Source of the DNA: Escherichia coli
Lineage (GTDB): Bacteria > Pseudomonadota > Gammaproteobacteria > Enterobacterales > Enterobacteriaceae
Strand: one strand, 5' to 3'
Assembly (NCBI RefSeq): GCF_048403405.1
Contig: NZ_CP183129.1
Length of the DNA: 64,000 bases
This document shows positions 23,522 through 48,826 of this stretch, piece after piece. The position numbers were made by a program, and so were the translations under genes. The notes under the pieces were generated by a model. That model was not told where the DNA came from, ran no database searches, and worked only from the letters and a program-made list of their open reading frames with translations. Within the stretch, counting starts at the first letter, position 1. The number at the start of each line of letters is the position of its first letter.

Positions 23522-27202
<3,681 letters not shown>

Positions 27203-27228
<26 letters not shown>

Positions 27229-27748
27229 TCAGCAACCCCGGTATCAGTTCATCCAGCGCGGCTGCTTTGTTCATGGCTTTGATGATATCCCGTTTCAGGA
27301 AATCAACATGTCGGTTTTCCAGTTCCGGAAAACGCCGCTGCACCGACAGGGGGATCCCGTCGAGAATACTGGCAATTTCACCTGCGATCCGCGACAGCAC
27401 GAAAGTACAGAATGCGGTTTCCACCACTTCAGCGGAGTCTCTGGCATTTTTCAGCTCCTGTGCGTCGGCCTGCGCACGCGTAAGTCGATGGCGTTCGTAC
27501 TCAATAGTCCCTGGCTGGAGATCTGTCTCGCTGGCCTGCCGCAGTTCTTCAACTTCCCGGCGCAGCTTTTCGTTCTCAATTTCAGCATCCCTTTCGGCAT
27601 ACCATTTTATGACGGCGGCAGAGTCATAAAGCACCTCATTACCCTTGCCACCGCCTCGCAGAACGGGCATTCCCTGTTCCTGCCAGTTCTGAATGGTACG
27701 GATACTCGCACCGAAAATGTCAGCCAGCTGCTTTTTGTTGACTTCCAT
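27203..27748 (-). CDS. Nu1: terminase small subunit Nu1
   Basis: 181 aa, MEVNKKQLADIFGASIRTIQNWQEQGMP... Confidence 0.95.
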
Positions 27749-27925
27749 TGTTCATTCCACGGACAAAAACAGAGAAAGGAAACGACAGAGGCCAAAAAGC
27801 TCGCTTTCAGCACCTGTCGTTTCCTTTCTTTTCAGAGGGTATTTTAAATAAAAACATTAAGTTATGACGAAGAAGAACGGAAACGCCTTAAACCGGAAAA
27901 TTTTCATAAATAGCGAAAACCCGCG

Positions 27926-27937
27926 AGGTCGCCGCCC
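27926..27937 (-). other. cos site (cosN 12-nt cohesive end GGGCGGCGACCT on the minus strand), cosB region toward Nu1
   Basis: Plus-strand aggtcgccgccc, preceded by ...cgaaaacccgcg, matching the lambda left end in reverse complement. Confidence 0.85.
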
Positions 27938-28136
27938 CGTAACCTGTCGGATCGCCGGAAAGGACCCGAAAAATGATAATAATTATCATCTACATATCAC
28001 AACGTGCGTGTACGCCATCAAACCACGTCAAATAATCAATTATGACGCAGGTATCGTATTAATTGATCCGCATCAACTTAACGTAAAAACAACTTCAGAC
28101 AATACAAATCAGCAACACAGAATACGGGACAACCTC

Positions 28137-28331
28137 ATGTCAACGAAGAACAGAACCCGCAGAACAACAACCCGCAACATCCGCTTTCCTAACCAAATGA
28201 TTGAACAAATTAACATCGCTCTTGATCAAAAAGGGTCCGGGAATTTCTCAGCCTGGGTCATTGAAGCCTGCCGTCGGAGACTAACGTCAGAAAAGAGAGC
28301 ATATACATCAATCAAAAGTGATGAAGAATGA
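28137..28331 (+). CDS. hypothetical small protein, possible ribbon-helix-helix fold
   Basis: 64 aa MSTKNRTRRTTTRNIRFPNQMIEQINIALDQKGSGNFSAWVIEACRRRL...; beta-alpha-alpha pattern; the upstream in-frame extension crosses cosN and is rejected. Confidence 0.4.
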   Translation: MSTKNRTRRTTTRNIRFPNQMIEQINIALDQKGSGNFSAWVIEACRRRLTSEKRAYTSIKSDEE

Positions 28332-28581
28332 ATATCCCGGTTTCTTTACCTCCCCTCCCACCCCGCACAGGACTGGCGAGCGTGTGGGACAAATATGTGA
28401 GTCATAAACGCCTTATCCTCAGAAATGCAGTTGGCATCCGAACAGGACGATATTGTAAATTCACCTAATTACGAGGCATTGCAGTAGTTGAATTGTAGTT
28501 CTGTATTAGCCTGACAGTGACAGAATGCGATATTGACTCTGTCACAGGTGAAATAGTTTGAATGGTTAGCAGTTATGGTGA

Positions 28582-28788
28582 TCAGTCAACCACCAAGGAA
28601 TAATCCTTCGAATTCTTATCGTGCTTCACCAACGCTGCCTCAATTGCCCTGAATGCTTCCAGAGACACTTGATGTTCTATACATGCAATTACAACATCCG
28701 GGTAACCCATCGAAATGGTGCTATTAAGCATAGTTTTTACACGAATCTGCTCCTGGGAGGGGGCATCAGTGTATTGATCTTTATGCAT
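28582..28788 (-). CDS. hypothetical protein (68 aa)
   Basis: ORF only; cos-proximal late-region gene. Confidence 0.35.
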
Positions 28789-29083
28789 TTTGTCGCTCCA
28801 TGCGTTTGCTCTTCACTTGCGGCTAAAAATATAACGTCAAATCACTCAGCATGAAAGAGTGAAAGTTTCAGCGCGTTTCCCTTACATAATCTGTCATTTG
28901 TATTCTCTTCAGGCATACCGGAAAGACTAGGTATTGTCACACAACCAATACCATCGACAATCGAGATTTATATCTATTCGGTAATGTTTAAATATAACAA
29001 AACCCCGTAAAAACGAGGTTTATGGGTAATTTGTATTGTTGAATAGCATCTGATGAGAAATTGATGCTAATACTATAAACATA

Positions 29084-29257
29084 CTAGATTAAATCAATCT
29101 TGATATCATAGCTTTCAAGACCAGTCATTTTTTCCCGTGCAGTAAACTGGATACTGGTAACTTCTTTCCCGGTCTTTTTCTTAAGCTCAATGATTTTTTT
29201 TGTTATATATTCAGAAATATCTGCTTCTGTTTTTGTTTTTAACTCTTCAATGTTCAT
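29084..29257 (-). CDS. GnsA/GnsB-family protein
   Basis: 57 aa from MNIEELKTKTEADISEYITKKIIELKKKTGKEV...REKMTGLESYDIKIDLI. Confidence 0.6.
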   Translation of the reverse strand: MNIEELKTKTEADISEYITKKIIELKKKTGKEVTSIQFTAREKMTGLESYDIKIDLI

Positions 29258-29429
29258 CATTTCCTCTTTTAGTCTGTTATGACTTTCCTGGTACACAGTA
29301 GTGTCAATTATATGGAGCAAACGTATAAAAGATAAGATGAAACATCGCAATAATCAACATACGACGGTCTAAATTTCACACAAACAGATAAAGATGATTA
29401 TCATTTATTATCAATGCATTAGAATCAAA

Positions 29430-29660
29430 TCAATTCAAGAGTCTCATTGCTGCTTCCAGAATTTCTTCTGAAGTTACATGTCGATCCGCTGCTACATAAA
29501 TGACTTTATGATCTCCGGTCAGAGATGGAAACCCTGCAGCCATTACAGTGAGGTGTGTTGTTTCGCCATTTGGATATTCACGCATGATGGTGTTAACTCC
29601 GGTCATCACTGGCACTACCATTGCTGGTTCAGAGTTAAAAAAAACTATTATTTTTTTCAT
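29430..29660 (-). CDS. hypothetical protein (76 aa)
   Basis: ORF only, start chosen at MKKIIVFF. Confidence 0.35.
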   Translation of the reverse strand: MKKIIVFFNSEPAMVVPVMTGVNTIMREYPNGETTHLTVMAAGFPSLTGDHKVIYVAADRHVTSEEILEAAMRLLN

Positions 29661-29931
29661 AATGTTACCGTAATATGTGAGTATCCATCGACTAGACACT
29701 AAGCAAAAAAGCTCCCGAAGGAGCCTTCATTTTCACTTTCTTAAATCTAACGACAGACGGCTAACATTTAAGTATTGTGAAATATTATCAAATGTAATCA
29801 TCATTGATTTACAAAAGATACATTTTGCCCCGAAAGGATTCCTGTCAGAAACATCAAAAGATGATGTTCTATACTGAGAACCATGGCAACACGGGCATCT
29901 AAAGTGAATATGGTTTGTAATATTTTCTACC

Positions 29932-30144
29932 TCAAAGTGCCACTACATGAACAGCCGCGGGGCCTTTAGGTCCGTTCTCAATACCAAATTCGACTTCCTG
30001 ATTCTCAGTTAACGTTTTGAAATCGTTGCTCTGAATAGCTGAGAAATGGACAAACACATCTTTGCTACCATCTTTCGGCGTGATGAAACCAAAACCTTTT
30101 TCAGGGTTAAACCATTTCACTAAACCAGTCATTTTGTTAGACAT
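29932..30144 (-). CDS. cold-shock protein (CspA family, CspI-like)
   Basis: [23 protein letters not shown]...; RNP motifs. Confidence 0.9.
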
Positions 30145-30508
30145 CATTATTACCTTTTGAAGAAGTTAGCCCTTGGGCAGAATGGTCCGAAAAAAAAATA
30201 TCAGAGAGAAAAACCAACAAGGAAATCTCAAGAGGTACAAATAATAAATTTATAACAATGACTGCTTCAGATAATTTTGTAACAAACCAGAACACCATTA
30301 ACGCATGATTAACCAACCATAGCAAGGATTACTTTTGTAAAGAAAAACACACGAATGAAACAATAGCTTTATTTATTAATAAAACGTGTCATTCTGTCTA
30401 ATGACCTTTTATCTTACCCTTAAGATTTCAAGGATTTTGACTCATGGAAGAGTCCTTTTTATTTAAATTTCACATTCAGCGCTAAAAATAATCCGATTTA
30501 ATATTAAT

Positions 30509-31536
<1,028 letters not shown>

Positions 31537-47602: not shown

Positions 47603-48826
47603 TCAGTTTGAATCAGAGATAGTACAATTAACAATCGATTCAACCCTCTTCCACCATGCCAGGTAAGCTTTACGCTGTTCTTCTAGATAATCGCTCTTAT
47701 CATAAACTTGCCATACCCCTGGCAGCTTATGACCAAGCATAATTTCTGCGATATGAGGCGCAGTAAGATCAGAAAAATTTGTTCGTGCTGTCCGTCTCAA
47801 GTCATGAAGAGACCAATGAGGGAATTGATATCCTAAACGCCGCCACGCGTACTGCATTAAATTGTAAGGCAGCGACTGTAATGATGTCCTACCGACTGGC
47901 TCCCTGCTTCCTTCCTTAGTAAAAAGCATATCGGAACCGTTGTTCATAGAGATAACGTATTTTATAAGCTCTTCAACCGGTTCAATAATGGGCCGCTTTA
48001 GCGGTTCGCCTGTTATGTCCCCTGTCTTATGTCGTTCAGGTGGTACAGTCCATACCTTATTTATGAAATCAAAATCACCCACCCTAGCAGTAATTAGCTC
48101 CGAACTACGGCAACCAAAATGCAGTAATAGTTTAATGAAGGCCCTGTATTTGGGAACCATTCTAGAGCCATCGATCGCAGCATAAAGAATTTTAATTTCA
48201 TCGTGTGTCAGAAACCGTTTCTTCTGACCTTTACGGATATCCATATCTTTACCCGTGATATCCGACAGCGGGCGAGTTTCAATAAGCTTTCTCTTATACG
48301 CCCAGACATGGGCCTGCTTTGCGTTAATTAGCAATCGGTCTGCTATTGCTGGAGTCTTAGTGCTAAGAGGCTCCAGGACTTCTAACCAATCATGCAATGT
48401 AGCTGCATCGTGAGGGATATTCCCGATTTTAGAGAACAGGTGCAGCTCAAACGAGCGGAGTATCTGTTCAGAACTCTTTTTATTTTTTACACAATATGCT
48501 TCATACCAGGCACGGATCACAGACTCTACCGTCATGGCTTCAGTAGCTTTTCGTTTTTCAGCCTGCTTGACCAATCGTGGATTACGGTTTGACTCGAGTT
48601 CACCACGGAGACGGATAACTTCTTCTCTGGCCTCTTTTAATCCAGTTGCCGGGTAAGTTCCGATATCAAGACGCTCACCTTTCCCTGCCCATTGATAACG
48701 ATATTGGAACACTACGCGACCTTTCGGTGATACTCTGACAGACAGACCATCACGATCGGATTTAACCAAAACCTTATCACGTTCCTTTCCAACGACTGAA
48801 CGCAACCACGCATCAGACAGCGCCAT
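47603..48826 (-). CDS. int: tyrosine integrase (P4-type)
   Basis: 407 aa; catalytic R (GCRSSEL), H-x-x-R (HDLRRT) and C-terminal Y. Confidence 0.95.
   Translation of the reverse strand: MALSDAWLRSVVGKERDKVLVKSDRDGLSVRVSPKGRVVFQYRYQWAGKGERLDIGTYPATGLKEAREEVIRLRGELESNRNPRLVKQAEKRKATEAMTVESVIRAWYEAYCVKNKKSSEQILRSFELHLFSKIGNIPHDAATLHDWLEVLEPLSTKTPAIADRLLINAKQAHVWAYKRKLIETRPLSDITGKDMDIRKGQKKRFLTHDEIKILYAAIDGSRMVPKYRAFIKLLLHFGCRSSELITARVGDFDFINKVWTVPPERHKTGDITGEPLKRPIIEPVEELIKYVISMNNGSDMLFTKEGSREPVGRTSLQSLPYNLMQYAWRRLGYQFPHWSLHDLRRTARTNFSDLTAPHIAEIMLGHKLPGVWQVYDKSDYLEEQRKAYLAWWKRVESIVNCTISDSN

Follow-up and report, generated by a model that had tools for sequence, protein, structure and literature searches.

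The prophage region considered here lies within a 64,000-nucleotide stretch of Escherichia coli DNA (the window; NZ_CP183129.1, assembly GCF_048403405.1), along which all positions are counted. Between the cohesive-end site, cos, and the lysis genes of this prophage sits a block of small genes, one of which, ylcI, encodes a protein of 64 amino acids (aa) that belongs to the DUF3950 family and is predicted to adopt the Arc/MetJ/CopG ribbon-helix-helix (RHH) fold. The sequence, a list of open reading frames (ORFs), and a repeat scan bear out the initial annotation of this DNA, in that all of the features it listed are present at the positions it gave:

28137-28331, plus strand: ylcI, a ylcI/ynfO-family gene (DUF3950) of 64 aa, antisense to the late operon
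28509-28549: inverted repeat or hairpin, with perfect 8-bp arms at 28517-28524 and 28538-28545
28582-28788, minus strand: homologue of lambda p79/YbcW, 68 aa (phrog_657, E 5e-48, positions 1-68 of 68)
29084-29257, minus strand: gnsB, 57 aa, of the GnsA/GnsB family (PF08178 and the Prokaryotic Genome Annotation Pipeline, PGAP)
29430-29660, minus strand: ynfN in its 76-aa form (phrog_3425, E 1e-55, positions 1-76 of 76)

The gene block between cos and the lysis genes

The block occupies the slot from Rz to cos in which lambda carries bor, p78, and p79. Its placement between cos and the lysis genes had been described correctly, with Nu1, gpA, and the cohesive end to the left and Rz and lysozyme to the right:

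25303-27228, minus strand: gpA, the large terminase, left of cos (from the ORF list)
27203-27748, minus strand: Nu1, left of cos (from the ORF list)
30509-31006, minus strand: Rz, right of the block
31003-31536, minus strand: lysozyme, right of the block

Since Rz and lysozyme are both on the minus strand, the late operon reads on that strand. The p79/ybcW homologue, gnsB, and ynfN are co-directional with it and have terminator hairpins between them, whereas ylcI, which adjoins cos and the small-terminase gene, is the sole gene of the block oriented against the late operon.

This arrangement is widespread. The interval from 27750 to 30200 matches a prophage of E. coli YDC107 and three other genomes at 100% identity and strain CFT073 at 99.3%, and of 5426 complete E. 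coli genomes 4832 contain parts of it. Over its first 1155 bases the interval shares 92% identity with the right end of phages lambda and HK630; the gnsB-cspI part is 92% identical to phage Tritos. At the same locus in CFT073, PGAP lists ylcI (YlcI/YnfO family), a hypothetical protein of 68 aa, gnsB, and ynfN, followed outside the block by ynfQ and cspI. None of the listed features is new; the block is an ordinary one, since every gene in it already has an annotation, and the modest gain of the analysis is a predicted fold, RHH, for DUF3950. The two ORFs of 68 and 76 aa, which had been called unassigned, in fact belong to named though uncharacterised families, lambda p79/YbcW and YnfN.

The interval is an accessory, or "moron", region of the kind that lambda-like E. 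coli prophages keep between the lysis cassette and cos, and it consists of several small independent transcription units and not of a single system. Hairpins of their own follow gnsB (29021-29000), ynfQ (29724-29705), and the ylcI gene of phage BP-4795, and the terminator hairpins after gnsB and after the cspI-ynfQ pair make the block a string of separate morons.

ylcI as a gene

The 64-aa ORF matches the DUF3950 model PF13132 with 71.4 bits (cutoff 25; E 5e-20) and model NF041551 with 36.6 bits (cutoff 30). It also matches phrog_949, and the family motif FSAWV is present in it as FSAWVIEAC. The protein is almost invariant across 51 loci. A lambda record contains the same ORF with one residue different (complement 48113-48304), and HK630 likewise contains it, with one residue changed and unannotated.

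Codon comparisons show that ylcI is a genuine gene and that purifying selection acts on it. Within its first 50 codons it differs from the BP-4795 homologue at 14 synonymous and 6 non-synonymous codons, and from the homologue of a second prophage at 21 synonymous and 6 non-synonymous codons. BP-4795 and the second prophage have another cos and another terminase, so it is the protein and not cos DNA that is constrained. In a cleaned alignment of 20 homologues, reaching down to 31% identity, residues I15, R16, F37, and V41 are invariant and the shared pattern reads x-K-N-I-R-F-P ... N-F-S-A-W-V-x-E-A-C. Even the diverged homologues (35-50% identity) retain this core, and the tail past residue 50 is short and mosaic.

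Of the 141 "representative" homologues, the majority were excluded as evidence of diversity because they resemble error-ridden copies of lambda. Hundreds of YlcI "variants" trace to ENA contigs that are about 3.5 kb long and show frameshift-like errors; some are labelled Staphylococcus, Veillonella, or Klebsiella. They resemble noisy copies of the lambda right end, probably from sequencing control DNA, and they inflate both the apparent diversity and the apparent host range of DUF3950.

The literature searched yielded no functional study of YlcI, YnfO, or DUF3950. Such mentions as occur in resequencing papers are incidental variant calls, and YnfO is listed among the uncharacterised genes of Qin (PMC11551758). 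PADLOC placed none of the four proteins of the block in a defence family.

The predicted fold of YlcI

As a monomer, YlcI is predicted by AlphaFold2 to form helices at residues 19-32 and 37-62. RHH proteins fold only as dimers, and for this reason two copies of YlcI were joined by a 15-residue linker, reportedly the one used for single-chain Arc, and predicted as a tandem with a matching alignment. In both halves of the tandem model a strand at residues 10-18 precedes helices at 19-32 and 37-57, with a predicted local distance difference test (pLDDT) score of about 80 in the core and a predicted template modelling (pTM) score of 0.58. YlcI is thus predicted to be an intertwined dimer with a two-stranded antiparallel ribbon, and its assignment to the Arc/MetJ/CopG fold is well supported as a prediction. 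The initial annotation had read an Arc/MetJ-type strand-helix-helix pattern in the 64-aa ORF and had proposed structure prediction as the check, which upholds it. The same annotation spoke of a repressor type; here the fold pattern stands with the predicted structure, whereas repressor activity is something that we infer.

The conservation of the strand bears on the contacts that such a ribbon could make. Positions 12, 14, and 16 are polar, and I15 and R16 are invariant. YlcI would bind DNA through its beta-ribbon, with contacts made by the invariant I15 and R16 together with the outward-facing N14 and T12. The N-F-S motif of the homologue alignment falls at the start of helix 2.

Genomic context and a proposed role for YlcI

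Among 80 IMG/VR loci with a close homologue of ylcI, Nu1 lies immediately to the left on the opposite strand in 69. The right neighbour varies, being p79 in 43 loci and Rz directly in about 28. In BP-4795 an antisense DUF3950 gene lies between Rz and an HNH-terS-terL set, 42 bp from the HNH start, and is followed by its own hairpin and T run; a second BP-4795-type prophage has the same layout. The gene is therefore found at the junction of lysis and packaging genes in phages with two unrelated terminase types, Nu1 and HNH-TerS-TerL. Transcription of the counterpart genes has been recorded in K-12, where ybcW and ylcI are listed among the pairs of convergent transcripts that overlap in 50% or more of the RNA-seq samples (PMC12288877).

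The proposed mechanism starts from expression of YlcI in the resident prophage. The protein would be a small repressor whose most likely site of action is its own leader, which is highly conserved, and the convergent ylcI unit may limit read-through from the upstream, co-directional moron promoters into cos and the terminase genes of the lysogen. Lambda Q is an antitermination factor, and Q-modified polymerase would override the ylcI barrier in lytic growth. The genes for GnsB, YnfN, YnfQ, and CspI would make up a stress and cold-shock moron block. All told, we consider it probable, though well short of certain, that the interval is a moron region in which YlcI is an RHH DNA-binding repressor and the inverted repeat is a 3' hairpin of p79.

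A number of observations weigh against this reading. The tandem model is an artificial single chain of only moderate confidence. Sequence searches tie DUF3950 to no RHH family: Pfam returns DUF3950 alone for YlcI, with no RHH family at E values up to 1; the best CopG-family match in a profile search of the PDB is StnY, at E 0.95 amid coiled-coil noise; and BLASTP of YlcI against Arc, with an Arc sequence entered by hand, gives no alignment. A phmmer search of the PDB with YlcI produced a spurious uL16 match only. A sigma-70 scan placed no plus-strand promoter upstream of ylcI, and its total of 9 sites compares with 8.5 expected from shuffles. No operator common to the flanks of the lambda-type and BP-4795-type ylcI genes was found; two AT-rich 9-mers are shared, in different order and at about chance expectation. 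Family members also occur away from cos, namely after cdtABC, in a fimbrial and restriction-modification island, and beside satellite integrases. The p79 hairpin lacks a U tract and is therefore not a canonical terminator. Finally, DNA binding, the target, and the insulator role are steps that we infer, the last of them purely so.

One of these distant members, a 62-aa DUF3950 gene, lies directly downstream of cdtABC (cytolethal distending toxin) and is co-directional with it. This arrangement fits a position of cdt in the same moron slot, from the lysis genes to cos, of a degraded lambdoid prophage.

DUF3950 belongs to the "y-ome" of E. coli and often goes unannotated in lambda, and an RHH fold would give the family a testable activity, DNA binding. 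The antisense place beside cos, together with the satellite fusions described below, suggests experiments on a lambda gene that has been neglected for decades.

Packaging and phage satellites

The main rival to the repressor reading holds that YlcI is a DNA-binding factor associated with cos or terminase, which would modulate packaging or take part in packaging conflict between phages and their satellites. It draws on the position of ylcI, which abuts cos and the small-terminase gene across two unrelated terminase types, and on the DUF3950 paralogues carried by satellites resembling phage-inducible chromosomal islands (PICIs). Moreover, in five protein clusters (120-129 aa, sharing 44-67% identity and the same ends) DUF3950 is fused to the N-terminal helix-turn-helix (HTH) of a Terminase_2 small terminase, and one such satellite sits inside a prophage terL, beside the prophage's own ylcI. 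That said, ylcI is antisense to the late operon and so would not be co-expressed with terminase. Lambda packaging in vitro and cosmid packaging are known to need only cosQ-cosN-cosB together with Nu1, A, IHF, and FI. Family members are also found far from any cos, and PGAP calls the fusion ORF pseudogene fragments. On this evidence we regard a packaging role as unlikely.

The satellite in question is an element of about 8 kb (NZ_CP027459.1, 3713-3721.6 kb) that is PICI-like and lies within terL of a BP-4795-type prophage. Its genes encode an integrase (int), an AlpA-like HTH protein, a 120-aa fusion of RHH and TerS-HTH, a 60-aa YlcI paralogue, and an Icd-like protein; DUF4222, a primase, terS, and a capsid-like gene are also present.

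A broader form of the idea makes DUF3950 a set of dedicated RHH modules tied to phage packaging sites, which we find doubtful. The prophage's antisense ylcI would then guard the terminase operon or cos in the lysogen, and the satellite paralogues, encoded between alpA and the replication genes and in some cases fused to TerS-HTH, would recognise or compete for the packaging DNA of the helper. If this were true, the cos-proximal RHH gene would be part of a phage-satellite packaging conflict and not a passive moron.

The inverted repeat and p79/ybcW

The arms of the inverted repeat, GTGACAGA and TCTGTCAC, lie 13 nt apart and are extended by CCTG/CAGG with a 4-nt bulge. The repeat begins 33 nt past the stop codon of the 68-aa gene, a homologue of which is annotated in HK630 as "similar to coliphage lambda p79" and in Tritos as YbcW. 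By itself the repeat is what chance would provide: first-order Markov simulations of the 2451-nt region yield a perfect 8-bp inverted repeat with a loop of 3-20 nt in 56% of cases, with a mean of 1.1 such repeats against the 2 observed, and within the 250-nt intergenic space alone the probability is about 0.05.

The initial annotation implied that this repeat is the operator of the RHH protein. In explicit form, GTGACAGA-N13-TCTGTCAC would be bound by YlcI, its arm centres being 21 bp apart, or two helical turns, a spacing that would let two RHH dimers sit on the same face of the DNA. The repeat is indeed close to ylcI. This prophage and lambda have the same arms, CCTG...CAGG included, but diverge at many sites in the loop and in the bases next to the repeat. 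About 80 loci fall into just two haplotypes of the repeat, in which the arms never vary and no compensatory change occurs.

Its distribution, though, follows p79. The repeat and p79 are both present in 41 loci, while 37 loci have a YlcI that is at least 95% identical and neither of the two, leaving 2 exceptions; p79, as noted, is the right neighbour of ylcI in 43 of the 80. The repeat is absent near the BP-4795 ylcI, the product of which has an identical beta-strand. It also lies downstream of ylcI and not at its promoter, the GTGACAGA 8-mer has no other copy in the 64-kb window, and an inverted repeat of such length is to be expected by chance. Since it is p79 and not ylcI with which the repeat co-segregates, the repeat is part of the p79 module. 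That it serves as a YlcI operator is quite unlikely, and it can be dropped as a candidate for that function.

Under the preferred reading, the repeat probably forms a hairpin in the 3' part of the p79/ybcW transcript, where this runs up against the convergent ylcI unit. The folding energy of the minus strand, which is the p79 sense, is -14.6 (z -3.2), as against -13 (z -1.4) for the plus strand.

A CRISPR interference screen offers a view of this transcript in lambda. There p79, knocked down on its own strand, scores as essential though it is dispensable, whereas bor and p78, on the other strand, score as non-essential (PMC10695390). The simplest reading of the p79 effect would be a polar one, in which the knock-down blocks late transcription that crosses p79 and cos on its way to the terminase genes.

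Toxin-antitoxin and chance-frame explanations

RHH proteins might also bring to mind the antitoxins of type II toxin-antitoxin pairs, in which case the toxin would be either GnsB or the ORF that overlaps the end of ylcI:

28328-28468, plus strand: 46-aa ORF, its start overlapping the ylcI stop codon (ATGA)

The overlap speaks for such a pair, as does the Pfam name of the GnsA/GnsB family, "GnsAB_toxin". But the 46-aa ORF has no family in Pfam, NCBIfam, or PHROGs. An 87-bp segment directly past the ylcI stop codon (28348-28434) is absent from lambda and HK630. It is this segment that gives rise to the 46-aa ORF here, and the indel cuts the ORF to 17 codons in lambda. The 46-aa ORF is probably not a gene, and with it goes the main support for a toxin-antitoxin pair. 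As for gnsB, it lies on the opposite strand at a distance of 750 bp, with its own terminator and the p79 gene in between. Moreover, ylcI stands alone beside Rz in BP-4795 and in at least 27 IMG/VR loci, and the short, mosaic tail of YlcI past residue 50 also speaks against an antitoxin. No conserved, co-directional toxin gene adjoins ylcI, and the gene layout largely refutes the explanation, which we judge very unlikely.

That the small ORFs are chance frames whose conservation stems from DNA-level constraints at cos is extremely unlikely: the DNA of the leader from cos to ylcI hardly varies, the Shine-Dalgarno sequence of ylcI is weak, and several lambda records leave the gene unannotated, but the synonymous excess relative to homologues beside a different cos and terminase refutes the explanation for ylcI, all four ORFs match curated family models above their cutoffs, and homologues of 35-50% identity keep the core.

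The cos flank

The DNA between Nu1 and ylcI contains the cohesive end and several short elements:

27926-27937: cosN cohesive-end sequence aggtcgccgccc, read from the sequence
27961-27967: cosQ-like heptamer aggaccc (sequence and repeat scan)
27973-27989: perfect palindrome ATGATAAT-A-ATTATCAT, beside the cosQ-like heptamer (repeat scan)

The sequence aggtcgccgccc is the reverse complement of lambda GGGCGGCGACCT, which we take to be the cohesive end, and the heptamer is presumably cosQ by its likeness to that of lambda. The heptamer and the palindrome are part of a 170-bp leader, running from cos to ylcI, that is highly conserved (about 50 IMG/VR loci). The palindrome (region 27973-28002) overlaps a minus-strand promoter-like sequence, TTGTGA-18-TATCAT, that points at cos and Nu1, and it is conserved in lambda with small changes. 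It could be a protein-binding site.

An extended ORF of 155 aa (27864-28331) spans cos and was rejected, as it has no support outside the DUF3950 core. Rfam matched only the cspA thermoregulator described below, which lies outside the block, and gave two spurious microRNA matches on the cosB inverted repeat.

gnsB, ynfN, and the cold-shock neighbours

The 57-aa protein had been called GnsB-like, and rightly so, as its match to PF08178 spans the entire profile (positions 1-54 of 54) at 114.5 bits (cutoff 27; E 2e-33). The 76-aa ORF is matched at residues 26-76 by phrog_4911, the shorter 51-aa form of YnfN found in K-12, and the corresponding CFT073 locus is named "protein YnfN" by PGAP. PDB sequence searches with the 68-aa and 76-aa proteins gave no match. 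Terminators follow gnsB and ynfQ, and beyond the block, on the side of the lysis genes, lies a cold-shock unit:

29000-29021, minus strand: terminator-like hairpin followed by a T run, downstream of gnsB (terminator scan)
29705-29724, minus strand: terminator GGCTCC-TTCG-GGAGC followed by TTTTTT, read from the sequence
29733-29921, minus strand: ynfQ/ymcF-like CxxC ORF of 62 aa with an ATT start (PGAP)
29932-30147, minus strand: cspI (cold-shock domain PF00313, E 2e-31)
29886-30292, minus strand: cspA-type thermoregulator leader of cspI (RF01766, 112 bits against a gathering score of 78)
29733-30292, minus strand: the cold-shock unit as a whole (ynfQ, cspI, and leader), just outside the block

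The terminator at 29705-29724, a hairpin that the scan listed on the plus strand, parts the cspI-ynfQ unit from ynfN and gnsB. The ynfQ/ymcF-like ORF is missing from the ORF list because it starts with ATT; it has two CxxC pairs and a weak match to the ECs_2282 zinc-binding family. Given the RF01766 leader in front of cspI, this neighbouring unit is probably cold-inducible at the RNA level.

Expression of such genes has been reported for the Tritos lysogen of strain LF82, in which transcript levels of cspI, of the gnsB/ynfN pair, and of ybcW well exceed the prophage background and ybcW is up in macrophages (PMC9928086). In that study LF82_0907 appears as "YnfN" in Table 1, at 27-fold above background, and as a gene of 174 nt encoding GnsB in supplementary file 5; the labels for the gnsB/ynfN block seem to be shifted by one gene in one table.

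Comparison with known systems

The RHH proteins with which YlcI invites comparison are Arc and Mnt of phage P22 and the CopG and MetJ proteins, to none of which a sequence relationship is detectable. YlcI is encoded at the junction of lysis and packaging genes and not in an immunity region. In place of the usual G-x-S/T/N turn of RHH proteins, the YlcI family has a conserved N-F-S. TraY of the F plasmid, a relaxosome accessory protein, naturally carries two RHH units in a single chain, whereas a homodimer is what YlcI would form; the two are 9% identical in sequence, and the match is one of shared fold only.

The genes of the block resemble lambda morons such as bor and lom (the moron concept of Hendrix): they are extra genes in the same slot from Rz to cos, with terminators of their own, some run against the late operon, and, to judge from homologues, they are expressed from the prophage. 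For bor, product and phenotype are defined, which is not so for YlcI, p79/YbcW, and YnfN.

The closest counterparts, from which ylcI differs in nothing of substance, are in the prophages of K-12 itself. Tritos and Qin have ydfO/ybcV (DUF1398) between gnsB and the ybcW homologue, a gene that this prophage lacks. In Qin-type prophages ydfO follows ynfO and is co-directional with it, and read-through fusions of the two occur in databases. YnfO of Qin differs from the present YlcI in its tail past residue 50, yet curated hidden Markov models place it, along with K-12 YlcI of DLP12, in the same family, and the K-12 genes occupy the same place, beside a Nu1 homologue (nohD/nohA) and convergent with ybcW.

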